Source of the DNA: Alphaproteobacteria bacterium
GTDB taxonomy: Bacteria; Pseudomonadota; Alphaproteobacteria; MPNO01; UBA830
DNA: 64,000 nucleotides
Assembly: GCA_964291215.2 (NCBI GenBank)
Contig: OZ219791.1
Coordinates: 2,784,001-2,848,000, forward strand
Reading direction: 5' to 3'
In this document: positions 10,693-61,705 of the stretch, piece by piece
How positions within the stretch are numbered: position 1 is the stretch's first letter
How the letters are laid out: the number at the start of each line of letters is the position of its first letter
The notes under the pieces: model-generated
The model's database searches: none
What the model was told of the DNA's origin: nothing
Seen by the model: the letters and a program-made list of their open reading frames with translations, nothing else
Made by a program: the position numbers and the translations under genes

Positions 10693-12429
10693 GTGACGGG
10701 AACACCGGACAGTGACGGCCGGACGGCCGGATGGGATCGCGAGGTCGACTTCGTGGTGGCCGGCGCCGGACCGGCCGGCATGGCCGCGGCGCTTGCCGGC
10801 GCAATCGAGGGCCTCGCCGTCCTCGTCTGCGAGAAGTCGGCGCAGGCCGGCGGTACCGGCGCGACATCGGCGGGGACGCTCTGGATTCCCGCCAACAGCC
10901 AGGGGCGCGAGGCCGGCTATACGGACTCCGCTGCCGATGGCGCGAAATATCTCGAAGCCGTCGCCGGCCGGCCCGACGACGATGTCGCCGCGCTGCGCGA
11001 GGTCTATTTCAGGGACGGACCCGGGATCATCGACTACTTCACGGAGCATTCCGAGCTGCGTTTCGTTGCCTGCGGTACCCATCCCGACTACCGCAACAAC
11101 CAGCCGGGGGCCGCGGTCGACGGCCGGGCGATAGTGCCCGAACTGTTCGACGGACGGCTGCTCGGCGCCGAGTTCGAACGCGTGCGGCCGCCGATCGAGG
11201 AGTTCATGCTGTTGGGCGGCATGATGGTCAGCAAGGAGGACATCGGGCTGCTGGTCGACCGTTATCGGACGCCGGGCGGCCTTGTTCACGCGGTGTGCCT
11301 CCTCGCCCGCTACGTTCTTGACCGTCTGCGCTACAGCCGCGGCACCCGGCTGACGATGGGAAATGCCCTCGTCGGGCGTCTCTATTACAGCCTCCGCAAG
11401 CGCAACGTGCCGGTGTTGTTCGAGACCGCCATCGTCGACCTCGTCCGTGAGGACGGGAACGTCACCGGTGCCGTGATCGAGGATGAAAACGGCAGATCCC
11501 GCATCCGTGCCAGAACGGGTGTTGTTCTCGCGACCGGCGGTTTCGCACGCAGTGAGAAATTTCGCGAGATGTTCATGCCTGAAGCGGCGCGCCCGAGATC
11601 TATGACCCTCGGCGAATGTACAGGCGACGGGCTCGGCATGGCGACCGCTGTCGGCGGCCATATCCGCACGGACGGGCACGGGTCGAGTTCGTTCTGGTCG
11701 CCGGTGTCGGTGACTAGGAGGTCCGATGGCAGTGAGGGGCTGTTCCCGCACCTTTCGCTTGACCGCGCCAAGCCCGGGCTGATCGCCGTCAATTCGGCAG
11801 GACGGCGGTTCGTCAACGAGGCCATCTCCTACCACGATTTCGTGGAAGCCATGTACCGTTCGCACGAGATCATCGACACCATGCCCGCCTGGCTGGTCTG
11901 CGACGCGGCCTTCGTGCGGAGTTTCGGGCTCGGCGCCATCCATCCGGGGACGCGGAATCTCCGACCATTCGCCGACAGCGGCTACATCACCCTGTCTCCA
12001 ACGCTTGATGGCCTTGCTGCTGCAATCGGTGTCGACGGCGCCGGGCTCGCGGACGCCGTGACGCGCCACAACCGGCACGCCGAGGACGGGTCGGATCCCG
12101 ACTTCGGCAAGGGCGACGACGCGTTCAACCGCTTCAATGGCGATCCCGGCCGCGTACCCAACCCGTGCCTCGGCCCCATCGCAAGCCCGCCCTATGTTGC
12201 GGTGGCGGTATGGCCGGCCGAGATCGGCTGCAGCATCGGCCTCGCGACGACGCCGGACGGCGAGGTCTTGGACGAGAAGGGCTGCGTAATCCCCGGCCTT
12301 TACGCTTGCGGCAACGACATGTCATCGATCATGAGCGGCAACTACCCGGGACCCGGAATCACGCTCGGGCCGGCCTTTGTTTTCGGCTACCGGGCAGCTC
12401 GGCATGCAGCCGCCCGCACGGGCGCCTGA
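10693..12429 (+). CDS. FAD-dependent oxidoreductase (3-ketosteroid dehydrogenase/FAD_binding_2 type)
   Basis: GAGPAG FAD motif, GGTGATSAG, VVLATGGF, GRRFVNE, YPGPGITLG; GGAGG before GTG 10693. Confidence 0.88.
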   Translation: MTGTPDSDGRTAGWDREVDFVVAGAGPAGMAAALAGAIEGLAVLVCEKSAQAGGTGATSAGTLWIPANSQGREAGYTDSAADGAKYLEAVAGRPDDDVAALREVYFRDGPGIIDYFTEHSELRFVACGTHPDYRNNQPGAAVDGRAIVPELFDGRLLGAEFERVRPPIEEFMLLGGMMVSKEDIGLLVDRYRTPGGLVHAVCLLARYVLDRLRYSRGTRLTMGNALVGRLYYSLRKRNVPVLFETAIVDLVREDGNVTGAVIEDENGRSRIRARTGVVLATGGFARSEKFREMFMPEAARPRSMTLGECTGDGLGMATAVGGHIRTDGHGSSSFWSPVSVTRRSDGSEGLFPHLSLDRAKPGLIAVNSAGRRFVNEAISYHDFVEAMYRSHEIIDTMPAWLVCDAAFVRSFGLGAIHPGTRNLRPFADSGYITLSPTLDGLAAAIGVDGAGLADAVTRHNRHAEDGSDPDFGKGDDAFNRFNGDPGRVPNPCLGPIASPPYVAVAVWPAEIGCSIGLATTPDGEVLDEKGCVIPGLYACGNDMSSIMSGNYPGPGITLGPAFVFGYRAARHAAARTGA

Positions 12430-12491
12430 AGCCGGGCGGGGGCATTGCTGCAGAGCGCTGGCGGCGGCAGAGGATAGTCAGGGACGATGCC

Positions 12492-14231
12492 ATGAATGTT
12501 GATCCGGTCACACTTGCCGTCATCAAGGGGCGTCTTGAGCAGATCTCGGACGAGATGGATGCCGCGCTGTTCAGGGCTGCCTTCAGCCCGGTCATTGCCG
12601 AGGCGCGGGACGCCTCGCACGGCATCTACGAGGCAGGGACCGGAGACACGCTCATCCAGGGCAAGGAGGGCCTGCCCATCTTCGTGGGCGTCATGTCGTT
12701 TGCCGTCAAGGCAGTCATCGCGCGGGCGCAGGACGCGGGCGAGATACGCGACGGCGATCTCTGGATCTTCAACGATCCCTATGTCGGCGGTACCCACCTG
12801 TCCGACTTCAAGATCGTGCGCCCCTAATTTCCGCGACGGCCGGCTGTTCTGCTGGCTGGCGTCGGTGGCGCACTGGCACGATGTCGGCGGTGGCGTGCCC
12901 GGCAACTACAGCCCGTCCGCCACCGACTGCTTCCAGGAAGGGTTCGTGCTCCCTCCGGTCAGGCTCGCGGAGGCCAGCGTTCTGCGCGATGATATCGTGG
13001 ATGTCGTCACCGCCAACAGCCGCCTTCCCGGGAGCTCCTACGGCGATCTGATGGGCCAGTTGAATTCCCTCGATCTTGGCGCACGGCGTCTCGGGGACCT
13101 GCTCGACGAGTACGGCGACGAGACCGTCAGCCGCGTCTTCGCCGAACTCAAGCGCCGCTCGGCGCAGCAGATGCGGAGCTTGATCTCCGATCTGCCCGAT
13201 GGCGTGTATTCGGCCGAGGACTTCCTCGAAAATGATGGCATAGAGGACGAGCCCCTCCGGGTGGCGCTCGACCTGACCATCTCCGGCGACCGGCTGATCT
13301 TCGATTTCTCGCGATCGGCCGAGTCGTGTTCGGGGTCGGTGAACATCTCCGAGACGACGGCCATCGCCGCGACCTATGTCGCACTCAAGCATGTGTTCCG
13401 CAACGTGCCTGCCAATGGCGGGGTGCTCGAACCGATCACGTTCGAGATCCCGCCGGACAAGCTGCTGTCCGCGGTCGCACCGCGCCCTGTCGGCGGTTAC
13501 ACGGAAACCATCCTGGCCTGATCGACATCGTGTTCACCGCCTTCGCCGAAGCCGATCTGGAGATGGCGCCGGCCAACGGTTTTGGCACCATCAACGCGGT
13601 TTCGATCAACGGGCGCCGCCCCGGCGAAGCGCGGCCGTGGGTGTTCTTCTCGTTCTTCGGCGGCGGTCTTGGTGCGCATTCGGACGGCGACGGGCTTACG
13701 CACGGCAACGGTTCGATCTCGATGGCCACGATTCCGCCTGCGGAAATCCTTGAGGCGGCGCAGCCCGTGATGTTCACAGAGTGGGGATTGCGTCCCGATT
13801 CGGCGGGGCCGGGCCGACATCGGGGCGGCTTCGGGGCGATCTACGAGATCGAGCTGCTTGCCGACCGGGCGACCGGGTTCGTGTTCGGGGAGCGCGGGTG
13901 GTTCCCCCCGAAGGGTATCGGCGGCGGCGGCGATGGCGCCATTGATGTCGTGATCTACACCCAGGGCGGTGAGGCGCATGTACCGGCGATGACGTCGAAG
14001 GCAGTCGGCATACGGCTTGGGGCAGGGGACCGGATCCGCATCGAATCCCCGGGTGGCGGCGGGTTCGGGCCGGCCCCGGAACGGGATGCTGACGAGGTTG
14101 CTGCGGATGTCCGCGAAGGTCTCGTGAGCGTTGCCGACGCCGCGGCATTCTACGGCGTCGTCGTTGACGAGCGCGGGAATGTCGATGTTCTGGCCACCAA
14201 CTCGCGCCGTCGCGCGATGAAGGTCCCATGA
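12492..14231 (+). pseudogene. hydantoinase B/oxoprolinase family, two single-nucleotide frameshifts
   Basis: MNVDPVTL..AFSPVIAE..NDPYVGGTHLSD, then HWHDVGG, then DSAGPGRHRGG and SPGGGGFG, in three frames. Apparent +1 nt at ~12825 (CCC-TAA-TTT for CCC-TAT-TTC) and -1 nt at ~13516. Confidence 0.88.
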
Positions 14232-14779
14232 CCGGGGCTTTTGCAGGCGTCGATGTCGGCGGAACCTTCACTGACGTTTTTTGGCTCGACGAGGACTACG
14301 GGCGGTATCGCGTCGCGAAGGTGCGGTCGACTCCGGACGACCAGTCGCGGGGTTTCATGCGCGGGCTCAAGGAAGCCGGCGGGATCTCGGCCCTTGCGAC
14401 GGTCGTGCACGGCACCACGGTCGGCACCAACGCGCTCCTCCAGCGCATGGGCGCGCCGACCGGGCTGATCACGACTGCGGGTTTCCGCGACGTCTTGGAA
14501 ATGCGCCGCCGCGACCGCCCAGAGATCTGGGGGCTGAGAGGCTCCTACCTGCCGATAATCCCGCGCCGCCTCCGGCGCAAGGTTGCTGAGCGCACGCTGG
14601 CCGACGGTTCGGTCCGTATCGCTGTCGATCCTGATTCGGTGCATGCGACGGCGCAGGAACTGCTCGATGCGGGCGCCGAGTCGCTCGCGATAATGTTCAT
14701 CAATTCCTACGCGAACCCGGCTAACGAGGAGGCTGCGCTTGAGGCCGCCCGCGCCGTGTGGCCGAATGACCGAATGACC
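14228..14779 (+). pseudogene. hydantoinase A/oxoprolinase N-terminal part, truncated by IS256
   Basis: GVDVGGTFTD, HGTTVGTNALL, TTAGFRDVLE, FINSYANPANE; ends at the IS terminus. Confidence 0.88.
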
Positions 14780-16029
14780 GGTACTGTAACTTGATGTCTG
14801 GAAATTTGTCTGAGGTTTGCGCTTTGAGGCGTTTCACTGGGGGGCTAGCCCCCCCAGTGAAACGCGGCGCCATCTTGCTATCCCATGGAGTTGGAAAAAT
14901 TCATGGAGGAAGCGAATGGACCTGCGACACACTACGACGATCGGGACTGTTTTGGAACATCTGATCGCAAACGGAGCAACGGATCTGGGGCGGATCTTTG
15001 GTCAGCTCTTCGAGCTTGCGATGCAAATCGAGCGCGAGCAGCACTTGAAAGCGGGCCACCGGACACCGGAACGACAGGGCTATGCCAACGGCTATAAGCC
15101 CAAACGGATCGACACCCCCACTGTTACCGTTCAGGTGCCAAACGGTCACGGGGACGATCCCCCCCAGTCGCTTGAACGCGGCCAGCGATCTTCTCGCGCC
15201 GTAGCCGAGATGTACATCAAGGGTGTTTCCACGCGGCAGGATGTAATGCGTGAGTTCGGGAGCCTGTCCTCTTCTCAGGTCAGCCGGGCCACCAGGTTGC
15301 TCGATGAAGAACTCGCCGCGCAACCGGCCCCTGATGAAATACCTGGATGCGCGCTATGAAAAAGCTCGCCATGACGGCGTTGTGCGCGATGTCGCAGTGC
15401 TCTCGGCCATCGGAATAGGGGCTGCAGGCACGTTCTGGGGCTCTCTGTGGCGCTCTCCGAGGCCGAGGTCCATTGGAGAGCCTTCCTGGAAAGCTTGCTA
15501 GCCCTGCATGGTACGACCTTTATCGTCTCGGATGACCATGCTGGGCTGAAAGCGGCACGACGCGCGGTGCTGGGCGCGGCGATGTGGCAGCGCTGCCAGT
15601 TCCACTTGGCGCAAAACGCCGTGCACCGAACAACGACATCAGGAAACGTATTGGAAAACAGCTCGGAGCCATGCGTCCTCACTCCAAACCGCCGAGGCTG
15701 AACCGGGCGCCCTCGTGGCCAGCTATCGCGACAAGCGTTCAGGCTTCCTGGCTGGAAAACAATGCGGGGCTCGCTGTCTTCACCTTGCCCGATGCTCACC
15801 ACAAGCGTATGCGAACCTCGAACGGCATCGAGCGACCGATCCAGCAAGAGCTCAAGCGGCGCACCTCCAAAGTCAGGGTCTTTCCGAACCTCGCCTCGTT
15901 GGAGCGCCTCTCAACCGCAGTCCTCATCGACGAAAAATGGGAAACCGAAACCAAGGCATACATCAAATGGGAACAGCTCGATGACTGAGAGCTTCACGAC
16001 AATTTCCAGACATCAGGTTGCGTAATCCC
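14780..16029 (+). mobile_element. IS256-family element, transposase destroyed by many small deletions
   Basis: NGYKPK, EMYIKGVSTR, YLDARYEK, VSDDHAGL, WQRCQFH, RTSNGIER fragments in shifting frames. Imperfect terminal IRs GGTACTGTAACTTGATGTCTGGAAATT / AATTTCCAGACATCAGGTTGCGTAATCCC. Confidence 0.92.
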
Positions 16030-16237
16030 CCAGATCCGTTGCTCCGTTTGCGATCAGATGTTCCAAAACAGTCCCGATCGTCGTAGTGTGTCGCAGGTCC
16101 ATTCGCTTCCTCCATGAATTTTTCCAACTCCATGGGATAGCACGATGGCGCCGCGTTTCACTGGGGGGCTAGCCCCCCAGTGAAACGCCTCAAAGCGCAA
16201 ACCTCAGACAAATTTCCAGACATCAAGTTACAGTACC
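16027..16237 (-). repeat. inverted near-identical copy of the first ~210 bp of the IS256
   Basis: Reverse complement of ~14780-14990, including the hairpin GCGTTTCACTGGGGGGCTAGCCCCCCAGTGAAACGC. Confidence 0.93.
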
Positions 16238-16239
16238 AA

Positions 16240-16459
16240 CAGGGGATCCTCGTCACACAGCGCATGAAGCGCTCCGGCATGCGCTGGCGCATCGTCGGCG
16301 GACAATCACCTTCCGCGCTCTGCTCGAATCCGGCCGCTTCGAGAGCGCGTGGACGGCCATGATCGGTGCAGACGATGCACCAGCCAACGACAACATCAGC
16401 CCAAATCACACCCCGGCACTGGCCGCATGAGATGAACAAATGGTACTGAGTCTGCAACC
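16240..16459 (+). mobile_element. ISKra4/ISLre2-like transposase C-terminal fragment
   Basis: LVTQRMKRSGMRW...GGQ motif. Confidence 0.65.
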
Positions 16460-16830
16460 GTGCCATACGAGAGTCTCACCCACCAAGACGCCACCACCAT
16501 CACCTTGGTGATGGACAACCTTGAACACCCCCCGGCGCTCTCTACGAGGCTTGCCCGCCGGACGAGGCCAGGGCCTTGTGGGACCGCTTCGAGTTCGTCT
16601 ACACCCCCCAAGCACGGCAGTTGGCTGAACGTGGTGGAACTCAACGTCATGATCTGGCAGTGCCTGAACCGTCGCATCGACTGCATCGAGGCGCTGCGCT
16701 GGGAAGTCGCCGCTTGGCAGGCCTCTCGCGACCGCATCCAGGCCAAGGTGGATTGGCAGTTCACCACCGACGATGCCCGCGTGAAACTCAAACCTCTCTA
16801 TACGACATTTTACGAATGACATCACGCTAG
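16460..16830 (+). mobile_element. IS630-family transposase 3' fragment
   Basis: LVMDNL, FEFVYTP/KHGSWLN, QCLNRRI, VDWQFTTDDARVKLKPLY; ends at CTAG. Confidence 0.88.
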
Positions 16831-16955
16831 GGGCCGTCGCGCTCACCACAGATGCAGGGTGGAAGGATGCCCGTGCCGGATGGATTTCTCCCGCGCCGAA
16901 GCCCTGTTGATCGCCTCCAGCGGCAGGGAGACCTCAACGGGCTTCCTGCGGCGCT

Positions 16956-17957
16956 TCATGCCGAAAGCCCGATTTTCATCCGGATCAAATCAGCCAGCTT
17001 CTTGAAATCGTGATAGGCCTCGGAAACGGCCGCTGCATGGTTTCCGATCGCGCCGTCGGCCGCGGTAAGGTGGAAAACGGGTTTCCGGGCCTCCTGCGCC
17101 ATGGGAACCAGACTTCGATAGTGCCGGACGGTTGCAAGACAGTTCTTGTCGTTGCTCGGCTTGTCCGGAAAAGACCCGGCGTCGCAGTTCAACAAATGCC
17201 GGCGGTAGGCTTCGGGTATGCGGTTTACCCACTTGTCATAGGCCTGCACCGGCCGGCCAAGGCGTACGCCATGCTGCTGGACGACATATCCCATCGGCTT
17301 CATGCTGCCGCAGGGCAATTCAAAACCGGGCCAGGCCCAATTGTCTCGGCGTTTCGACCATTCGCTCGTCCACCTTGTCAGCGTCGGACCCAGGTTCCTC
17401 AGGCCTTGGAGAGAAAAGAGGTCTGCCCCCAGCGGCGCGATGACGTGATCGGTTGCGACGAGCGCCGAGCGGTTCAGGGCGCCCAGATTGGGGCCGACAT
17501 CCACGAGGATGATCGTCGCGTCGATGGATGCGGCGCCGCTCTGCATGGTCTGCCAGAATGCGGTGAGGATGCGGAACGGGCGGTACAGATTGGATTCGCC
17601 AAGGGCGTTGGGCCATTCGCTGGAAAGGCTGTCCTCGAAACTGGAGAGCGCCAGGTCGCCGGAAATGAGTCCGAGGGTTTCGGTGATCCGTTTCACCTGC
17701 GGTTCCTGCAAGTCTCCCACCTCCATCAACGGCTGGATGCACTGGTAGATGGTCTGGCTCTTTGCGCCGTCCTCCCACAGCGACTCGAGCGCGCGCTCGT
17801 CGAGGAAAGTTGCAGTCAGATTGGCTTGCGGATCGAGGTCGCAGGCCAGTACGCGCTCGCCGATCTCCGACAGCATCCAGGCGAGGTGATAGACTAGGGA
17901 CGTTTTGCCGACGCCTCCCTTGTTGTTGAAAAAGGTCAGGACCGGCGCGGCCATCAT
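16956..17957 (-). CDS. ParA/CobQ-family ATPase
   Basis: [32 protein letters not shown]. Confidence 0.92.
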
Positions 17958-19177
17958 GCGGCCTCCCCAGCTTCGGGAACTGCCCGTACCGTGGCGAGCA
18001 GGTGCGTCGGCTCGACCGTGAAGTCGAGTTCCGGATGTCCGGCCTCGCGTAACAGGCGTTGCGCGGTCGGTATCCCGATCCCGAATCTCTGCACATAGCC
18101 TAACACCCGCATGGCCTCGGCCAGATTCGGATTGCGGTAGTCCGTCACTCCGGGGCGGGCGAAGTTCTCCTTAGTGACCGACCCGAAGGGTCCGCCGGGA
18201 TTCTGGATTTCGATCCTGTCGTCGAACCAAGTGACGCGGACGGGAGCGTTCGTCGTTTCGTAATCGCGGTGAATGAGCGCGTTCCGTGCGAGTTCCCGCA
18301 AGGCGGTCATGGGGTAGCTGTCCACACGGCGTTCGACATCGTGAGTGGCGATGTCGACCCGGCGAAGGTTGTGCGACCGAAGCTTGTCGTCAAGGCGCGA
18401 TAGCATTTCGGGGATTGTCCCGTCGATTCTTCTCTCGTCGATAACCGGGTCCGAAAGGTCATGCCCCCCGATGCGCAGGAACTGTATGTACCCACCCGGA
18501 ATATAGTCCAGCGGCCTCGTTCCGAGCACCAGCAAACCGAGAATCGTGGCCTGCCCGTCGTCGACGGAAGCAATCATCTTGGCCGCGGCCAAGCGTTCCT
18601 CCAGGCTGCGGTTGTTGGCCCGCAGGAGTTCCCGGTCGATCGCATTGGGCAGATACTCGTCCTCGAACTGGCGTCGATTGAGATCGGCGATGCCGGTGCC
18701 CGGCACCGGCGAAATATCGAAAGGCCGGTCTCCGTGGCGCCGCCTCTCGTTCAGTATACGCTCTTCTTGGGCCGTCGCCACAGCCCGGCGCGGACCGTTG
18801 CGAATGTGGATCGCGCCCCGGTAGCGCACCGGTGGCGAGTCGGACGGCAGGACGGTCACAACGGCGATATCGTGGCCTCGATACCGGCGCTTCTCGGATA
18901 GGATCGGCGGCGGCGGCACGATGTTCCCGTCGCTGCGCATGTCGGCCAGCGCGCGCAGCATCTCGTCGGTGATGGGGGTGCCGGTTGGGACACCGTCGTC
19001 CCCCAGCCCGACGACTGCGATGCCCGGGAGTCCTGAGCCGGGAAGATCGTTGGCGAAGGAGCAGATCGCTTCGCGAAGCCGCGTCGGCGCATTGCCTCCT
19101 AGCGTCTCCTTGAATTCGACCCGCGTGCTTTCCGCGCCCTCGATCAGGCGCGCCAATTCGTCGTCGTCCAGTCTCAT
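17954..19177 (-). CDS. Schlafen/AlbA_2 domain + HATPase_c_4 (RecG C-terminal-like) protein
   Basis: ESTRVEFKE, ICSFAN, RELARNALIHRDY, RIEIQNPGG, YRNPNLAE, QRFGIGI. Confidence 0.88.
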   Translation of the reverse strand: MRLDDDELARLIEGAESTRVEFKETLGGNAPTRLREAICSFANDLPGSGLPGIAVVGLGDDGVPTGTPITDEMLRALADMRSDGNIVPPPPILSEKRRYRGHDIAVVTVLPSDSPPVRYRGAIHIRNGPRRAVATAQEERILNERRRHGDRPFDISPVPGTGIADLNRRQFEDEYLPNAIDRELLRANNRSLEERLAAAKMIASVDDGQATILGLLVLGTRPLDYIPGGYIQFLRIGGHDLSDPVIDERRIDGTIPEMLSRLDDKLRSHNLRRVDIATHDVERRVDSYPMTALRELARNALIHRDYETTNAPVRVTWFDDRIEIQNPGGPFGSVTKENFARPGVTDYRNPNLAEAMRVLGYVQRFGIGIPTAQRLLREAGHPELDFTVEPTHLLATVRAVPEAGEAA

Positions 19178-19543
19178 GGTCCCGCCTCCGCGGCTTTCCC
19201 GATCGCCGATACGGAGATCGTCCGCGAGACCTCCGCGAAGCCGGGCGGCGGTCCGAAAATCCGCGCCGGGTCGGGAACATAGAGCAGCCGGTGGACAAAG
19301 CCGTCTTCGACGAGCACGGCAGCGAGGATGAACGACCCTCCCGCGTTGAGCGCCGTCAGCATCTTGTTGCGCGTGACCGTGACGGCCTCTGCGTCCGCGC
19401 ACCGGCCCTTGATCTCGGTCAAGCGGAGGCCGCCGGTCTCAGGGTCGCGGCTTTCGATGTCACAACCTCGGTTCTCCGACGCAGCGTCGCGCGGCTCGTA
19501 TCCGAGGCTGCGTTCGCGTTTCATGATAGCCTCCATTGCCCTA

Positions 19544-20731
19544 GTAGTCTAACATTATTGTATTGATGGATATAGTGACTTCAGTTTCGTCCGGGCATCC
19601 TTCGTCGTGAAACGCCAGTCGACAGTGACATCGGCCGCATTGCGCCGTTCCACCCATGCTGCCGTCTCCCGCCGCATGGTGTCTCTGTCGGGAATGCGTC
19701 GCCGAAGGCACTGCCGCGACAGTGCACCGATCTCAATTTCGGCCATGTTGAGCCAGCTCCCGTGCTTCGGCGTGTAGCGAAACTCGAACCGCTTTCGCAC
19801 CCGCCTCCTCGGGCTCGAAGGCTTCATACAGCGACTGTGTGTGTTCAGATTGTCCAGCACGATCTTCCTGTCGGGGAAATGGTCGTCGGCAAGCTCCCGG
19901 ATGAAGTGCGCCCGGTTTCACAGCGGTCGGTGACTTTCACCGTGCGCCAGTTCTCGTTGGGCGCAAAGGCCAGGAAGAAGTTGGCCGTACCGTTGCGCTT
20001 ATATTCATGGTCGACCACCTCCGGCTGACCGGGGGTTTCCTTCGTCTGCTGCCGGCTGGTCTCGTACACCAGCACCTCACCCCCGGCAAAGTCCCGCTGA
20101 CAAATGTCAAGCACGTCCGCCGCCACGAACTGTGCGCTCCGGTGCGGTGGAATGCACCAGTACTGCTTCAGCCACGGCTTGAGCTCTTTTTTTAGCGTCT
20201 TCCTGACCGTCTCTTCCGAAATGCGCTCGACGATCTCCACCAGACGGCCGGCGAGCAGCGTCCACAGCCCTCGGGCGGGGACGAGCAGGGCGACCAGCTT
20301 CGCCTCCATCGCCCCGTTTCGGCCGACGGTTCACCTGCTCCTTGCGGCTGAGGGCAGCCTCCGGACCCTCCAGGACGCAGCGCAAGCGCTCGACCGTCGC
20401 CGTGCCCAGCGCAATGTCGGCATCGACAAGCGCCCCTCAGCATCAGGATTTGTGCCCGGCGCCCCCGGTGCCCGATCGCCTTCAGATCCCGGCGCTCCTG
20501 CGCTGAAAGGGTTACCCGGTAGAGCTTCCTGCCCCGAGAGTTGGCCATATGCGCCGCTCCTGTCATTGCGCCGAAGACCTGCGGGCATGCCCGTTGTCCG
20601 GACCTGCGCATGGGGCTGCGGCTGCCTGCCCGTTCGGCATCTTGCCCGTATCGACACTGTCCGGATTCCAACGGATGCCGACACAGGAATACTACCCACC
20701 AAAAACCATCAATACAATGCCGGTGGACTAC
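19544..20731 (-). mobile_element. IS630-family element, decayed
   Basis: IRs GTAGTCTAACATTATTGTATTGATGG / CCATCAATACAATGCCGGTGGACTAC flanked by duplicated TA (19542-3, 20732-3). KPWLKQYWCIP, EYKRNGT, LDNLNTH, TPKHGSWLNMAEIE. Confidence 0.93.
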
Positions 20732-20763
20732 TAGATTCGATTTCGGCGCGGGCTAGGGCGGAC

Positions 20764-21590
20764 GTGCAGCGAGTCTAGCTGCTGATCTTGCGGGTGAAAG
20801 TCCCGCAATTCTCAGTTTGGCGCCGTAGCATTGGTTCAGGGGCGACCCTGGACCAGCGAGCTGGGACGTAGGAAGCCGTCGTGGGCTGGCTGGAACTCAG
20901 TGTCCAGCCGGTTCGGTCAGCTAGGGCGGCGAGCAAACCGGAGGGCGAAAGCGAACGGGAAGCCCCGAAATTCCCCACCCACACGAAGCTGATTGTGGGA
21001 TAGACGGTGAACGCCAAGGTTGCTACCCGATGGCCAGTGTCGATGCGGAAGAACTGAGGAACACGCATCGGGTTCCCCGGGGTACAGACGGCGGCAATCC
21101 GGGACAGATCAGCAGTGAAAGACCGGAAGGTGAGGAGGACAGACAGGATGAAGCGACCCGTCAAGGACCGCGTCTATAACCGGGAAACGGGAAAGGACGC
21201 GGAGTCCACCTGACTGGCGGATGAGGTCGCCTAAGCGTTGACGGGCGGGACAACACAACCCGTCCCGAGCGAGGACCTCAGGGCTCAGGTGGCCTATGCG
21301 GCAGGTCAAGTCGGTACTCAGACCGACAGACTGCAAGGCCGAAGGACGGAGCAAACGCTCGGAGATGCCGTGGGTATGGCTGGGTCAGCCTTGACCATGG
21401 CGTGGGAAGGCTCCGCACCGAACTCCAAGTGGGTGCCTGATGCTTGAACCGGGAAAACCGGACGTACGGAATTTTAGGGGGGCTGCTGGAAACGTGGTCT
21501 ATGGCGATTCTGCGAACCCGCCCGCAATCGAAAGAGCGGTGACGGGTAAAGCCTTCGCCTAAGGATGCGCGCGCCAGTGGCCTACCCGAC
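20764..21590 (+). mobile_element. ORF-less group II intron, antisense within the helicase gene
   Basis: 5' GTGCAG; GGGTGAAAGTCCC; domain V-like GAACCGGGAAAACCGGACGTACGGAATTTTAGGGGGG; long domain VI ending CCTACCCGAC. Excision restores the flanking helicase frame. Confidence 0.82.
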
Positions 21591-23519
21591 GGTGGTTCCT
21601 TCGTGCCGTCCGGGGGAGGGGGGCGTCGCCCGCCTCTTCCCGGCGGAGAAGTCTCGCGGGCACGACAAGGCCGCGCCGCAGACTTCCGGGGGCAGCGGCG
21701 CGAGGTCCCGCTGGCGCGCAATGTCGGCGAGCCGATGCTCTAGGCGATCTGCCAATGCCTCCGCTTGGCGCCTTACATTCTCCGAGTTCAGCCGGGGATG
21801 CTTGCTCGCCTTCTCTTCCGCCTCCAGATCCAGGGCGCGGTGCTGGAGATGAACGATCTCGCGGCGTATCCGCTCTCTGATCGCCGTTTCGATCCTGTCG
21901 AGTATGGCGAGGCACGGCTCTCCTGCCTCCTCCAGATGCCGGGGGGCTAGGTCGGTGACCGCAAGCGTACGTGCCCGCTCTTCCAGGGGTTCCCTGAGCC
22001 AGGGCGCGCCCAGGGTCTCGCCGATCCCGTCCTGCTCTTCCGCCGTCGGCGCGCGGCAGTCCAGATATGGTGCCGGCCCGCCGTTGTTGGCACTGCCGAC
22101 TTCGTGGAGCCAGACGAATTGCAGCCGTTTGGAGAGCGTCTGCGGCTTGCCGTCCCGTGCCGCCCGGCCATCGCGGATCGCATGGTGCAACGTGACCAGA
22201 ATGCGGGCGTCGTCATGCCGGTCGGTGTCGTCGACCAGCACACTCCGCGCGCCAGAAGCTCGCGATAGCGCTCAAGCGTCAGATCGATCAGGGCATCGAG
22301 CAGTGGATGGCCGGGCGCAACAAGTGCCGCCTGCGGCTGGCCAGGGATGTGTTTCCTGTCGAAACAGATGCGACGATAGCGGGGCAGCACCGGATCGGCG
22401 CGGCCGATCAGACGGTCCCGGTCGCGCAAGACGGGCGGAACCCGCGTGATCTCGGCCCGGCCCGTCTCGCGACGGCGCAGGATGCTGCCGGCTTCCTCAA
22501 AAGCTGCCTCGAAGAAGGGGCGGATGTGGTGGGGTTGGAGCCGCCGCGCCGCCGCCCGCTTCATCTCCTCCTGCACGCCGCGGACCGTGGCTGGGTCGAA
22601 CCCCTCCCGGGTCAGCTTGTTGTGTGCGACGAGATCGTTGATGTTGTCGACATCGACCGCGCCGTCGATCGTCTGGAACAGCCTGTCGGATATCTCCGGC
22701 CGCTCGCCGTAGCGGATGGCTTCCATGAACAGCTCGCGCAGCGGCCGGGCCTCGAACAGTTCGCCGAGCACATCGTAGATCCTGCCGCCCAGGGTTTGCC
22801 GTGTCGTCTCCAGCTTTTCCAGAAGCCGTTGGTACACCGCGCCCTCGCGCGTTTCGTTCGCCACCAGGTTCCACAGGTGGCAGACCTCGGTCTGCCCGAT
22901 CCGGTGAATGCGCGCGAAGTGCTGCTCCGGCCGGTTGGGATTCCACGGCAGGTCGTAGTTGACCATCAGGTGAGCGCCGCGTTGCAGGTTCACCCCCTCG
23001 TCGGCAGCGTCGTTGGCGAGAAGGAAGCGGACGGAGGGATCGTCGTTGAACGCGACGATGGCGGCGCGCCGCCGGTCGCGCGGGACGCTGCCGTGGATGA
23101 CGGTCACACTGTCGGGCGCGCCCGTGCGGTCGCGGATACGGTGGGCGAGATACTCCAACGTGTCGCGCGCCTCGGTGAAGACGACGATCTTGCGGCGCGC
23201 GCCCTGCCGGGGATCGTGGATTGGGGGGTCGTCGAAGATGCGGTCGAGTTCGTGCCATTTGTCATCCTCGCCAGACCGGCGGAGCGCGTTCGCCATGGCT
23301 TCGAGCCGCCGCAGCTCGGCGACCTCGGCTTCAAGTTCGGCGACCGTGCGGGCCGCCGTGGCGCGGTCGACGAGTCGGTCTTCGTGCGCCTCCAGCTCTT
23401 CGCCCGTGGCGTCTTCGAGAGCATCGTTGTCGAGCATAGCTTTCGGCACGGCCGCTTCTCCGACCTCGTGCCCGGCGCGGCCGAGCCGTTCTTCCTCCAG
23501 CCGCGCCTCGAATCGCAAC

Positions 23520-23737
23520 GTCGTGAGGATGGCGGACGGGAAGGCGCCCGACATCAGGGCGGTGGTCATCGATCTCGACGCCTCGTCGGATCGCATCTTG
23601 CCGCACGGCAATCGCTCCCGGGAACGAAGAAGGTCTGGCAGGGTCTCGAGCGGCTGCACCGGGCGATCCAGGTGCGCGACGCACTGGGCAAGAGAAGGCG
23701 GGAATGAGATACCTGTATGAGTGTGGGATGTTGAAAG
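23520..23737 (+). mobile_element. IS4-family (Tn5-like) transposase 3' end remnant
   Basis: RQSLPGTKKVWQGLERL; ends TTGAAAG like the element at 56062-58002. Confidence 0.72.
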
Positions 23738-24124
23738 GCCTGTCGTGGCGGGACCGCGCAGGGAAAGGAGAAAGCCGAAGCCTGTGATGAACGGTTTGAA
23801 GAAGGGGCCCTGTGAAGGCGGCGAACAAGGGAGCTTCTGCGGAGTTGCTGGAGGAAAGGGCCTCGACCAAGGGGAATTCGGGACACAAAAGCACGCGCCG
23901 AACGCAGTGTCGGGTGCCACAGGCGGCGGACCGGATACGGAAAGCCGCAGAGGTTCGACTGGAAGCGACTGGAGCGCATGACCGAGATTCTTTGGCCGCG
24001 CGCAACAATCCGCCACCCATGGCCGGACCAGCGGTTTGCCGTCAAGCACCCGAGGGCGGATGGATTAACGTCCATGTCCGGATTTGTGCGGGGGGTGCGC
24101 AGTAATGCGCATTCCTACCGTAAC
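23738..24124 (+). mobile_element. group II intron remnant (5'-truncated, RT ORF internally deleted)
   Basis: RT start (VPQAADRIRKAA) joined to RT end (IRHPWPDQRFAVKHPR); domain V/VI CGGATGGATTAACGTCCATGTCCGGATTTGTGCGGGGGGTGCGCAGTAATGCGCATTCCTACCGTAAC. Confidence 0.82.
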
Positions 24125-25273
24125 TCGGTGACGACATGGAGCGATCGGGTCCTGCCGTCGACCCGGAAGCCGGTTTCGTCGACATGCAGGGCCGGGCGTT
24201 CCGGCAGCTCGGCGATGGCGGCCTGGAGTGCAGCGCGTCATGCAGGCGCCTGACGCAGGCGAGGCAGGTGGCCTCGTAGAGCCTGAGCCCGGAGACCGCC
24301 TGCACCAGCGCGACGGCGCAGGGACAGCATTTGGGCGACCGGCAGGTTGATGACGAAGGCCTGCAGACCGACGCCGTATTGCAGCGGCCCGGGCATGGTC
24401 TCGGGAAACCGCCCCCGGCAATCCGGGCATTCCTTGACCTCGGCGTCGATGCGGCGCTCGATGACCTCGAAGACGATGTCGTACGACGCTCCCGGTCGAC
24501 AGCCTCGACGCCATCGAGGCCGCAGGCCTCGACGGCGACCGTCTCCTCGACGATGGTCTTCCAGAGGTTGTCGCCCGTCTGCAGGTTCGGCTTCGGGCCC
24601 TTGCCGCTGGCGCCCTTGCGCCGCTCGTCCTTGTCCGTCTGCGACGGCGCAAGGCCGGAGTTGGCGCCGGTGGGTCGTCTTCTCCAGCAGGACGGCAATC
24701 AGGATGCTCACCAAGGTGGACAGCACGCGGATCACGTCATCGGCCTCTCCGGATATCTTGCCGGCAGCGCCGCGATCCTGGCCGCCTCGAACTCCTCGCG
24801 CAGCGACGCCGCGTCGCCCGGCGGCATCTTCCGGTACCCCGCCGCCTGGCCTTGCGCCTGATGCGCTGACGGTCCGTGCGGTTCCGTCCGACATCGCCGG
24901 CCGAGTGCATCCGCCCGGGCTCGAAGTCGAGCCACCTCGGTGCGGACCCGGGGCGTCACCTGCACGGCGATGCGGCGCCAGTCCCGCAGCAGGTCGTCGT
25001 ACAACGCCGAGGCGCGGCCCGAGACCATCGCCTGACACGGCAGCCCCTTGAGCAGTTCAAGGAGTTCGACATGGTTGGCTTCGGTGCAGTCGTGACGGTA
25101 CCGCCGCTTCGATCGGCGGGTCGCCTGCAGGGGTCGCTGCAGACCAGTTTCGTGCCCCGGAACGCAAGGCCGGCCAGGAACGCGTGGGCGCAGCCGTGGA
25201 TCAGTTCCACCGGATAATCGCACCCGAACCCGTCCAGCGATCGCCGGTCGATCCCGATCGAGCGCAAGGCCGG
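24125..25273 (-). mobile_element. IS66-family remnant: DNA methyltransferase fragment plus transposase 5' half
   Basis: PALRSIGID..YPVELIHGCAH..SDP..HVELLELL..VSG..LYD MTase fragments; EKTT..NSGLAPSQTDK, ECPDC, LHVDETGFRVDG. Confidence 0.82.
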
Positions 25274-26569
25274 GTGATGGCGACGGTCAACGCGGCGCGC
25301 GAGGAGTTCGAAGCGGCCAAGACCGCGGCGCTGCGTGCGGCCGGCAAGGTGGCGGAAGAGGCCGTCATCCGCGTCCTTGTCATCCTGCTCGACATCATCA
25401 TCGTCGTCCTTCTGGAGAAGACCACGCGCAAAACGAGCCGGAACTCCGGTCTGCCGCCGTCACAGACGGACAAGAGCGTGCCGGAAGCAACGGCAAGGGC
25501 CCGAAGCCGAACCGGCAGATGGGCGACAACCTGCGCAAGACCATCGTCGAGGAAACGGTTGCGGCCTGCGACGCCTGCGGCGCTGACATCGACGGCCCCG
25601 TCGATCGGGAGCGCCGCGTCCTCTATGACATCGTGTTCGAGGTCGTCGAGCGCCGCGCCGAGATCAAGGAATGCCCGAAGTGCAAGGGCCGGTTCCCCGA
25701 CAACATCCCGTGCAGTACGGCATCCAGGCCCTCGTCATCAACCTGCTGGTCGCCCAGATGCTATCCCTGCGCCGTCGCGTTCGTGCAGGCGATCTCCGGC
25801 ATCAAGCTCTCCGAGGCAACCTGCCTCGGCTATGCTTTCACGATGCGTCATGGGAGGAGGCCGCCGTGGCGCACCTCCTGCAACGCCCAGCCCTGCATGT
25901 CGACGAGACCGGATTTCGGATCAACAGTAAGTGGCTCCATGTCGTGGGACCCTGACGTGCAAGTTCCCGCACCGCAAGCGCGGGCAAGAGATCGGCCCGT
26001 GCTACAAGGGCGTCCTGGGCCTCGTACATGGGCCAGTGTAGCCACCAGCTGTGCGGTAGCCACCTGCTGCGCGAACTGACCTTTGTCGTCGAGGCTACCG
26101 CGCGACTGATGAAGAGCCTGCTCCGCGAGGTCTGCCACAAGGTCAACAAGAGCGCATCTAAAACCCTGAACGACGCCGGGCCGTGCGCAAGCGCTACCGC
26201 ACCATCAGGGCGCCAAGGAACTGCCCGACATTCCGCCGCCGCCGAAAGGAAAACGTGGACGCAAGTCCGACGCGCACAACCTGCACGAACGTCTCGTGAA
26301 ACACGAAAACCTGCGCTTCACAGACGACCCCAACGTCAGCTTCACCAACAATGCCGGAGAACAGAAGATCAGGATGGCAAAGGTCAAGGTGTCCGGGTGC
26401 TTCCGCTCCACGCAAAAGCATGGTGCCGGGGCTCAAGCTACCTCACCTCCATGGCCGCACTCGGCTACAACCCACTCGTCGCCACCCAGATCGCCCTCGA
26501 CGGAAAAGCCGCAGACATCATCAACGAGCACTATGGCCAATCAGAATCCAACTAGGGGTGAGTAGATAC
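25262..26569 (+). mobile_element. IS66-family (single-ORF ISBst12-like) transposase copy A, decayed
   Basis: NSGLPPSQTDK, LHVDETGFR, HQLCGSHLLREL, FTNNAGEQKIRMAKVK; right end GGGGTGAGTAGATAC; near-identical to 54069-55345. Confidence 0.92.
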
Positions 26570-26688
26570 CTGGTTTGAATGTTCATCCTCAGCCAGTTCG
26601 CGCCGCAGTGCTGGCAAAGCGCAGCCGTCCAGGCGCCGTTCCGGCAGGGTGGCCGTCCAGCGGAAGTGAACGGGTTGCCGCCGGCCGG

Positions 26689-53794: not shown

Positions 53795-56061
53795 CTTTCA
53801 ACGAACCATGATCGAGTCTTCGTTCATGAGGCGTAACTGCTCACCCCCTGGTTCCGGCTTGATGTCGGGGTAGAGCAACGAACGGGGTTCCGTGGAGATT
53901 TGACACTGCATGCCGATTCGCTTAGTGGTGGTCATCGAGAACGACGGGGACCGCCAGTGGGCTACTTTGGATCGAAGGCGACGAGCGGGCTGTGCCAGCT
54001 GCTTCCGGGGCTCCAGCCTCCGCATGATCTGTATGTGGAAACGCATTTCGGAGGCGGCGCGCTGATGAAGCGCAAGGCCGGGTGATGGCGACGGTCAACG
54101 CGGCGCGCGAGGAGTTCGAAGCGGCCAAGACCGCGGCGCTGCCGGCAAGGTGGCGGAAGAGGCCGTCATCCGCGTCCTTGTCATCCTGCTCGACATCATC
54201 ATCGTCGTCCTTCTGGAGAAGACCACGCACGAGCCGGAACTCCGGTCTGCCGCCGTCACAGACGGACAAGAGCGTGCCGGAAGCAACGGCCCGAAGCCGA
54301 ACCGGCAGATGGGCGACAACCTGCGCAAGATCATCGTCGAGGAGACGGTCGCGGCCTGCGACGCCTGCGGCGCTGACGGCCCCGTCGATCGGGAGCGCCG
54401 CACGACATCGTGTTCGAGGTCGTCGAGCGCCGCGCCGAGATCAAGGAATGCCCGAAGTGCAAGGCCCGGGGCCGGTTCCCCGACAACATCCCGTGCAGTA
54501 CGGCATCGGCATTCAGGCCCTCGTCATCAACCTGCTGGTCGCCCAGATGCTGTCCCTGCGCCGTGCCGTCGCGTTCGTGCAGGCGATCTCCGGCATCAAG
54601 CTCTCCGAGGCCTCGGCTATGCTTTCACGATGCGTCATGGGAGGAGGCCGCCGTGGCGCACCTCCTGCAACGCCCGATGTCGACGAGACCGGATTTCGGA
54701 TCAACAGCAAGTGGCTCCATGTCGTCGGGACCCTGACGTGCAAGTTCCCGCACCGCAAGCGCGGGCAAGAGATCGGCATCATCCCGTGCTACAAGGGCGT
54801 CCTGGACCTCGTACATGGGCCAGTGTAGCCACCAGCTGTGCGGCAGCCACCTGCTGCGCGAACTGACCTTTGTCGTCGAGGCTACCGCGCGACTGATGAA
54901 GAGCCTGCTCCGCGAGGTCTGCCACAAGGTCAACAAGATCGCATCCAAAACCCTGAACGACGACGTGCGCAAGCGCTACCGCACCATCAGGGCGCCAGGG
55001 AACTGCCCGACATCCCGCCGAAAGGAAAACGTGGACGCAAGTCCGACGCGCACAACCTGCACGAACGTCTCGTGAAACACGCAAACCTGCGCTTCACAGA
55101 CGACCCCAACGTCAGCTTCACCAACAATGCCGGAGAACAGAAGATCAGGATGGCAAAGGTCAAGGTGTCCGGGTGCTTCCGCTCCACGCAAAAGCATGGT
55201 GCCGGGGCTCGAGCTACCTCACCTCCATGGCCGCACTCGGCTACAACCCACTCGTCGCCACCCAGATCGCCCTCGACGGAAAAGCCGCAGACATCATCAA
55301 CGAGCACTATGGCCAATCAGAACCCAACTAGGGGTGAGTAGATACCATGAGGCCTTATATAGTAGCCCATGAGAATTGGCTTTCGACATCTGTCCACGAC
55401 GACGGTTGATTGGCTGAAGGTGGCGCCGGTTGCCGAGAGCGGCACGCCCTGGCGCAGGGATTGTGCGAACGCGAGGCGCAACGCGAAGGGCGAGCTGTGG
55501 CTTGCCGCGTGCGGCCCTGCCTGGTCTTGCCTCGGCGCTCGGCATCGTCCTTCCTGCACCAAGGCCTCGACATTGGCACCCTTGAGCGGGACTATCCCGA
55601 CAAGCCACTCGCATGTTCTCCGGAGGAGCTTGGCGAGGTCACCGTAGAGCCGGTCGGCGACGACGAGGACAAGCGCCTGGCGATGATGACGACCTGGCAT
55701 CCCGAGGCGCGCGCACCCGGATGAGCTACCGGATCACCTCGTCGTGCTACGGCCGCCTCGGCGGCCTGGTGTTCCGTGCGGCCAATTGGCATCAGAAGGC
55801 GCGCGACGACTTCTGGTCCCGGGGAGCGCGTGACGTTCACCTCGGCAAGGTCGTCAACAACGCCCGCTTGCTGATACTTCCGTCGGTGAATGTTCCGGAG
55901 CTGGCCTCCCATGTCCTGGCCTGCCGGCGGCTTGCTGCGGACTGAGAAGTGACGCCGGTTCCGGCCTACGCCTATGTGAGCCCCGAAGACACCGGCACGA
56001 GCTACAGGGCGGCAGGCCGGGAGCGTTGTGAGAAGATGACCTCGGGCCGACCTCCCGGGGC
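53795..56061 (+). mobile_element. IS4-family/DUF4338 element 1 (left part), interrupted by IS66 and by element 2
   Basis: Left end CTTTCAA at 53795. After removing the IS66, ATG MRIGFRH (55369) sits at about the same distance from the end as in element 2. WHQKARD, VVNNARLLILP.V fragments. Confidence 0.7.
53833..55345 (+). mobile_element. IS66-family element copy B with methyltransferase 5' fragment; both ends intact, 8-bp TSD
   Basis: IRs GTAACTGCTCACCCC / GGGGTGAGTAGATAC; TSD CATGAGGC at 53825-53832 and 55346-55353; GYFGSKATSG..PHDLYVETHFGGGA followed by a decayed transposase. Confidence 0.94.
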
Positions 56062-61692: not shown

Positions 61693-61705
61693 TGCCGGCC
61701 CTCCG

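Follow-up and report, generated by a model that had tools for sequence, protein, structure and literature searches.

In fungi, repeat-induced point mutation (RIP) damages repeated DNA through C-to-T point mutations, and in GC-biased gene conversion a bias in heteroduplex repair lifts one class of alleles without selection. Gene conversion among bacterial insertion sequence (IS) copies was reportedly observed in Wolbachia by Cordaux in 2009, and to our knowledge no bacterial repeat-sensing process disables transposons by a defined lesion. Here we describe a window of 64,000 nucleotides (nt), the whole stretch of DNA that was analysed (contig OZ219791.1, positions 2,784,001 to 2,848,000), from an alphaproteobacterial genome of 6.15 Mb (G000), about a quarter of which is repetitive (27% of its 21-mers are repeated). 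Two single-copy pseudogenes in the window, encoding hydantoinase B and an SNF2 helicase, decay by ordinary 1-nt indels, while the surrounding repeats, including an IS630-family copy and a group II intron-like element nested in the helicase, carry fixed 5-7-nt deletion alleles. The literature searched, mostly at the level of abstracts, contained no report of such a deletion pattern. Researchers have found that indel sizes in bacterial pseudogenes follow a power law with an excess of 3n lengths (PMC6054270). In our opinion there is about an even chance that gene conversion biased towards deletions and working on very short patches carried the 5-7-nt alleles from one copy to the next, a kind of 'deletion drive'.

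Indels in single-copy genes and in repeats

The hydantoinase B pseudogene (12492-14231, + strand) is a native single-copy gene recognised by the Pfam domain Hydantoinase_B and by alignment to relatives. Its only gaps against the congeners G001 (93% identity) and G004 are a +1 at ~12826 and a -1 at ~13516, and since a contig from sequencing run X1, which may be the source sample of G000, matches 12400-14806 without a single difference or gap, both indels are present in the raw data. The body of the helicase pseudogene (21591-23519, - strand; Helicase_C domain) likewise has no 5-7-nt gap. Alignment by tblastn with 6 intact homologues placed its frame switches at ~22244 and ~21657-21670, a 424-aa block aligns to one homologue (L119) without a gap, and two motifs are substituted (NDAAGEG to NDAADEG, RLEQRFGR to RPEQHFAR). 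Contigs of a sibling organism (~90-93% identical; runs X1 and X2) have exactly two gap letters in total over 21643-23516 (by contig, 2 in X2 record 13, 1 in X1 record 5, and 0 in X2 records 14 and 16 and X1 record 8), and thus both frameshifts, at ~21670 and ~22245, are 1-nt deletions. The former is also present in a zero-difference X1 contig (record 4); the latter is covered by none of the zero-difference contig records listed. The first-pass annotation, made from the sequence alone, had proposed these frameshifts in both genes as well as the motif substitutions and the long uninterrupted frames of the helicase, and all of them were recovered. Of the ~1230 aa of the gene product, the C-terminal ~770 are represented here (they align to residues ~463-1204 in a homologue of 1230 aa), the N-terminal ~460 aa lying outside the window, and its NOV_C (DUF3883) part was located at 19174-19541 (- strand) by domain search and homologue alignment. 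Because the helicase lies on an island (14772-26685) for which G001 has no counterpart at the corresponding place, it is a single-copy but foreign gene rather than a native one.

The elements inserted in the helicase were described beforehand as shredded, and this is what we found. The IS630-family copy (19544-20731, - strand; 54 near-full copies in the genome) has 16 gaps of at least 5 nt, and the ORF-less element at 20763-21590 (+ strand, antisense in the helicase; 11 near-full copies), which we take to be a group II intron from its terminal motifs and which has no Rfam match, has 7. At the density of the IS630 (16 gaps in 1.19 kb), the two pseudogenes, 3.6 kb in all, should have ~48 gaps; 0 gaps of 5-7 nt were observed, and all 4 of their indels are 1 nt, so that counting by size gave no sign of a similar gap density in the pseudogenes. 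Element gaps were counted against family references made from G000's own copies, and because four near-fixed 6-nt gaps of the IS256 family are visible only by comparison with copies from other genomes, such references undercount gaps. The earlier argument that nesting limits the age of the deletions does not carry over: nesting dates the insertion only, and nearly every gap of the nested IS630 is common to other copies of its family. The site at which this copy is inserted (19542/20737) is empty in X1 and X2 contigs. The related possibility that the IS630 had decayed before it moved stands in so far as shredded copies have moved, but the IS630 family contains no near-twin (closest pair 15 single-nucleotide polymorphisms, SNPs).

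The same contrast holds across the genome. The control was drawn from 0.9 of the 5.0 Mb of G001, and further stretches were sampled from the congeners G002 (0.4 of 6.1 Mb), G003 (0.24 of 4.5 Mb) and G004 (0.16 of 3.8 Mb), the last two picked mostly around known IS, and from a Candidatus Binatia genome, G078 (0.4 of 6.0 Mb). Shadow ORFs were removed by requiring synonymous changes to be at least 0.9 times the non-synonymous ones, which took out 93 of the 131 rows classed as broken and 86 of the 473 classed as intact. The 38 real single-copy genes broken in G000 amount to 46.4 kb, in which 26 indels of one nt stand against 3 deletions of 5-8 nt. In the repeats, represented by 27 partly overlapping repeat seeds with 1.05 Mb of copies, we counted 707 deletions of 1 nt, 63 of 4 nt, 1638 of 5 nt, 4196 of 6 nt, 2257 of 7 nt and 237 of 8 nt, the 5- and 7-nt deletions reaching ~10 times the 3-nt count and 2-3 times the 1-nt count. 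The 1-nt load, which can be taken as a rough clock, is alike in broken single-copy genes and repeats (0.56 vs 0.68 per kb), whereas the load of 5-7-nt deletions is ~7.7 per kb in repeats and that of 5-8-nt deletions 0.065 per kb in the pseudogenes, a difference of ~100-fold. Thus, relaxed selection and age alone are insufficient, as had been suggested from the window, and the single-copy control makes the multi-copy deletion finding credible.

Single-copy DNA is not immune, and G000 shows a small lineage-specific excess of 5-8-nt deletions there. Over 558 kb, 91 segments of this size are missing from G000 and 17 from G001, with 180 vs 142 gaps of 1 nt; many of these deletions are slippage-like, and 18 of 65 have at least 4 nt of microhomology. 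The excess of 6-nt deletions is lineage-wide and extends to working genes. In 423 kb of intact genes, 17 six-nt segments are absent from G000 and 2 from G001, and three-nt segments 5 and 2, respectively.

Several other features surround these subjects. Besides the SNF2-NOV_C gene, the island contains several shredded elements and single-copy, open frames for a ParA-like ATPase and an AlbA_2/RecG_C protein (16956-19177, - strand). An IS256-family copy (14780-16027, + strand; 74 near-full copies) has 13 gaps of at least 5 nt in addition to the four near-fixed 6-nt gaps, and is followed by the inverted left-end fragment of a second IS256 copy (16028-16237, - strand). The IS256 left end has a perfect palindrome (14830-14862) with a poly-G arm that varies widely in length among copies, and the first ~280 bp of the element contain no 5-7-nt deletion site. 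A second intron-like element begins at ~23700, with 6-nt gaps at 23831 and 23913. Upstream, a 5' remnant of hydantoinase A (14228-14771, + strand) marks where the island has replaced ~1.5 kb of G001 sequence and with it the 3' part of that gene, and a second hydantoinase A/B pair with open frames is found at 59650-63814. Outside the helicase and hydantoinase region, the same phenomenon is seen at 54075-55346 (+ strand), where a member of the family with the heaviest shredding lies (127 near-full copies, none with fewer than 7 deletions); we take this family to be IS66-like from its motifs.

Deletion alleles and the copies and hosts that carry them

The deletion alleles are real. It is very improbable that they come from an assembly or polishing artefact confined to repeats, although an allele mosaic is what random read placement could yield and X1 may be the source sample itself. 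X1 contigs with a depth of 1837 (15676-15796) and 3039 (15851-15955) span the junctions at 15747, 15765 and 15924 gap-free, and the separate assembly G078 carries 9 identical deletion alleles; on these two grounds we reject an artefact origin. Furthermore, the copies retain private SNPs, and the IS families of other assemblies are without such gaps: the IS copy pairs of G003 and G004 have 0 gaps of 5-8 nt in 18.6 kb and 7.7 kb, and a 24-copy family of another genome has none in 29.7 kb. An artefact could still affect which copy bears which allele. The intron gap at 21159 is filled in all of the X1 depth (661/661); because minor variants are lost from contigs and the block is retained in 7 of 14 other copies, it was counted neither way.

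Each family has about one deletion site every 30-60 bp, and the deletions there are fixed alleles that individual copies have or lack in a mosaic fashion. Individual deletions are common to 15-95% of the copies, and site frequencies are flat up to 0.9 (44, 47, 44, 40, 30 and 7 of 212 sites). Among alleles found in more than 5 copies, 266 of 372 are 5-7 nt, compared with 34 of the 159 singletons away from hotspots, of which 68 are 1 nt. At 33 of 189 sites the deletion is overlapped by a second allele, and random placement predicts 16%; without an excess of second alleles, each site is one allele, and imprecise recurrent cutting was rejected on the same count. Deletion haplotypes are distinct in 50 of 50, 96 of 96 and 51 of 52 copies of three families, and pairwise deletion differences equal the independence expectation in five of five families. 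No full-length copy in the five large families is deletion-free (minimum 3-7 per copy), and the number per copy ranges from 3 to more than 30. At 6, 12 and 20 bp (middle bin 7-12 bp), r2 is 0.41, 0.20 and 0.19 between SNPs, and 0.07, 0.07 and 0.05 between deletions and SNPs. The SNPs themselves are thus shuffled among copies, indicating that conversion occurs. At 13 of 92 sites, no retained string could have given rise to the main deleted one, and some of these sites have flanking variants riding along. The deleted segments show modest microhomology. A hairpin-loop origin was rejected, with no stem or unpaired excess at 167 sites, and the few sites with a codon frame gave no clear pattern that would point to a codon-frame origin.

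Alleles shared in this way might reflect age and descent, if long-dead decayed lineages were amplified in trans or imported and unbiased conversion then shuffled their alleles. Two shredded copies in a trio share 14 gaps at 15 SNPs, near-identical pairs were found in two smaller families, and a lone shredded IS256 resides in G078, whose own repeats decay normally, all of which is in line with this explanation. We nonetheless consider it unlikely, and as a full explanation it is largely refuted. The copies differ by a median of 1.65% from a reference whose transposase frame is nearly open, and repeats have ~1 deletion per 1-2 SNPs vs ~1 per several hundred in single-copy DNA; the three largest families have no near-twins (closest pairs 6, 11 and 15 SNPs), and the 5-7-nt peak is left unexplained. 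Deletion load does not correlate with private SNPs per copy in 3 families, and its relation to SNPs from the reference is weak and mixed. In two cases, a supposed second sister family proved to be the same family, 95-99% identical.

The deletion load rises with copy number. At 1-3% SNP divergence, we counted 1.0, 0.8, 2.1 and 4.6 gaps of 5-8 nt per kb at 2, 3, 4-5 and 6-10 copies, and 2.8, 8.1, 6.2 and 7.4 at 11-20, 21-50, 51-100 and >100 copies, while 1-nt gaps stayed below 1 per kb in every bin. The low-copy bins are contaminated by shredded families with undercounted copies, and when the 2-3-copy bin was redone more strictly, 55 of 75 pairs had no 5-8-nt gap at all. The first-pass annotation had set mobile against non-mobile DNA; its control is valid, but the dividing line runs mainly between multi-copy and single-copy DNA. 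A two-copy IS256 has no gap and an IS110 pair only one, of 6 nt, whereas paralogues that are not IS are gapped: an 11-copy fibronectin-III/autotransporter family has shared gaps, mostly in-frame, and a DUF499 duplicate has gaps of 6, 6, 6 and 7 nt.

The deletion trait also follows the host. No 5-8-nt deletion is present in any of the 10 copies of a related IS256 in a Roseovarius genome, nor in the single copies from Silicimonas and Halieaceae genomes. A search with the IS families of G000 gave no match in 4 congeners, 25 family genomes and, where 5 candidates were scored per genome, 77 order genomes. The lone IS256 copy of G078 (C1:2353149-2354409; L293/L364) differs from the G000 reference by 4.4%; of its 12 deletions of 5-7 nt, 9 are identical to G000 alleles, and 35 of its 59 SNPs segregate in G000. 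Its other 3 deletion alleles are missing from all 131 G000 copies and fragments, indicating that the set of sites depends on history. The repeats of G078 itself have 127 one-nt gaps and 14 of 5-7 nt in 50 kb. The simplest reading is a cross-phylum import of an already shredded copy from the G000 lineage or a sibling, with binning or assembly carry-over as alternatives; no target duplication is visible in the 20-nt flanks. In the 400 kb of G078 compared, 19 matches of at least 250 bp with 82-95% identity to G000 (L385-L395) suggest wide gene sharing between the two phyla. A three-copy G000 segment matched in this comparison is without 6, 6, 6, 7, 5 and 6 nt. The genome of G000 has one 16S gene, a two-piece tmRNA and tRNA-Sec.

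Directional copying or a precise cutter as possible mechanisms

Five things are direct observations: the size peak, the sharing of alleles, the lack of linkage between these alleles and flanking SNPs, the increase with copy number and the host specificity. Descent cannot give a 5-7-nt peak, and selection gains little from the twentieth lesion in a dead copy, which leaves directional copying or a precise cutter. Unbiased conversion should not be able to lift the mean load above the mutational input, so that the ~100-fold higher load of repeats would need a bias. In the mechanism that we propose, a 5-7-nt deletion would be a rare event in a single copy, though perhaps less rare in repeats than elsewhere, and when two copies pair, the intact strand would form a 5-7-nt loop. 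MutS/MutL would handle single mismatches and loops of 1-4 nt, and larger loops would escape and be resolved toward the shorter strand within a patch of a few bases. Each allele could then climb through its family until no intact transposase was left. For the loop-removing enzyme, UvrABC is our guess, and its short excision patch could set the ceiling of ~8 nt. Single-copy genes have no donor and would therefore retain only their own rare events. Researchers have found that bacterial mismatch repair (MMR) repairs loops of up to ~4 nt efficiently and loops of 5-8 nt less well (PMC2504288). Between copying and cutting, we favour short-patch conversion with moderate confidence, on account of one allele per site, weak sequence determinism, history-dependent sites and the dose-response.

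The competing reading is repeat-induced deletion, in which a host system triggered by repeat pairing would cut out 5-7 nt afresh in each copy and conversion would be secondary. Its details might include sequence-favoured sites, two staggered nicks and loss of the overhang, as a bacterial analogue of fungal RIP. We regard both the process and these details as a possible but clearly less probable alternative. At 60 of 92 sites there are at least two deleted local haplotypes, so several SNP backgrounds are involved, and deletion-SNP linkage is low. In retained copies, minor alleles are doubled within 4-6 nt of a site (0.030 vs 0.014). On the other hand, local sequence predicts the sites only weakly (area under the curve 0.64-0.74) and gives no hairpin signal, which is too little for about one site per 45 bp in up to 95% of copies; variant alleles per site are not in excess, none of the three extra alleles of the exported copy is found among the G000 copies and fragments, and searches gave no candidate enzyme.

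Several observations weigh against short-patch conversion as the whole account, and most of them would suit fresh cutting in each copy. The deleted segments have T second from each 5' end in 36% vs 17% (z = 8), symmetrically and with the two ends independent; this preference is seen already in rare alleles and is missing in single-copy deletions (10% of 60 ends), so these alleles differ from what simple sampling of background mutation would give. Deletion frequency is not lowered within 40 bp of internal breaks (81 vs 83.6 expected). Four low-copy elements are shredded without a donor pool in G000; in a two-copy group II intron (C1:94843-96574, L273, and C2:13300-14830, L272), one copy is nearly intact and the other lacks 28 segments at 32 SNPs. 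Lost copies or import can account for such elements, but fresh generation fits equally. In three multi-copy families of AAA-ATPase/PD-(D/E)XK genes of G002 there is one gap of 1 nt besides 11 of 5-7 nt, and every one of these 11 occurs in a single copy only, which speaks for generation more than for spread. These G002 genes form a large, expanded group, often in tandem and 7-14% diverged (L225, L222, L231, L232, L240). Taken together, the shredded low-copy elements, the lack of an edge effect and the end preference in rare alleles suggest that the generation of 5-7-nt deletions in repeats may itself be raised. The mutS, mutL, uvrC and recA frames are open in G000, but these genes are equally present in G003 and G004, which have no such gaps, and therefore cannot explain the host specificity. 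In addition, the assignment of alleles to copies rests on one assembly, and the conversion model, which we hold at even odds, is read from allele patterns rather than from a directly observed conversion event.

A guide-directed nuclease (CRISPR, Argonaute or TnpB) that cuts fixed IS sites, with uncuttable alleles copied as in a homing drive, would yield fixed sites, bias and short conversion tracts. G000 does encode two CRISPR systems, of types I-G and II-C. The first (C1:574174-591435) has a 97-repeat array with a 580-aa Cas4-Cas1-like protein, its assignment to type I-G being our own reading, and the second (C2:2063981-2069571) has 17 repeats and a 1046-aa Cas9-like protein. We nevertheless judge a guided nuclease quite improbable. 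None of the 112 spacers matches an IS beyond chance, no PAM-like motif flanks the deletion sites, and there is no sign of a guide store, since 15-mers spanning the sites occur at 127 places vs 178 for controls; moreover, resistant alleles would mostly be SNPs. Searches found no Piwi and no TnpB over the cut-off, nor NucS, for which the search was positive in 6 of 14 control genomes. Ku was found in none of the 5 genomes searched, and junctions with one allele per site rather than heterogeneous ends are also unlike Ku/LigD end joining. ComEC and RecT were each found in 0 of 5 genomes of the genus.

Whichever process generates the deletions, it might belong to a host-encoded, homology-sensing defence, a counterpart of RIP that recognises repeated DNA of whatever kind and writes or propagates precise 5-7-nt deletions until a high-copy family retains no intact transposase or intron, with shredded copies exported across phyla. 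We offer this only as a tentative possibility.

Comparison with known systems

Spread of the deletion alleles would silence whole transposon families. Whether it stems from repair bias or from an evolved defence, it would be a route for IS bursts to end while the copies stay. In the five large families of G000 every full-length copy has deletions, while IS256 is intact in other hosts. The excess of 5-7-nt gaps among repeats is a countable signature that can be scanned across complete genomes, and with this system the resolution of loops slightly beyond the MutS limit in bacteria can be tested directly.

The 1-nt dominance in the hydantoinase, the helicase and the 38 broken genes is like ordinary pseudogene decay (PMC6054270). 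The power law and 3n excess reported there differ from what the nested IS630, the intron and the other repeats of G000 display, namely a 5-7-nt peak. The lower edge of this size window coincides with the ~4-nt limit of MMR, while the part of the work on MutS/MutL and large-loop repair that we drew on describes no deletion bias and no ceiling at ~8 nt (PMC2504288).

In the repeats of G000, alleles are common to dispersed dead copies and linkage is broken over tens of bases. This is the likeness to IS gene conversion as it is said to operate in Wolbachia; G000 differs in that its copies are not kept alike or intact, and conversion appears directional and size-selective for 5-7 nt. As in biased gene conversion, a repair bias seems to raise one allele class without selection, and the derived class is enriched at high frequency, above the mutational input. 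Here, however, it is 5-7-nt deletions that are favoured, the pairing copies are ectopic within one bacterial genome, and flanking SNPs hardly co-convert. With fungal RIP the process shares repeat dependence, seen as a rise with copy number with four low-copy exceptions, the similar fate of unrelated families and introns, and the loss of every intact full-length copy in large families. Its lesions are short deletions, and rare C-to-T changes are without context bias (0.72-1.28 over 16 contexts). Thus, the process works like biased conversion among IS copies and resembles RIP in its effect, but because its lesion is a size-selected deletion and no known enzyme is attached to it, it is a member of neither as defined.

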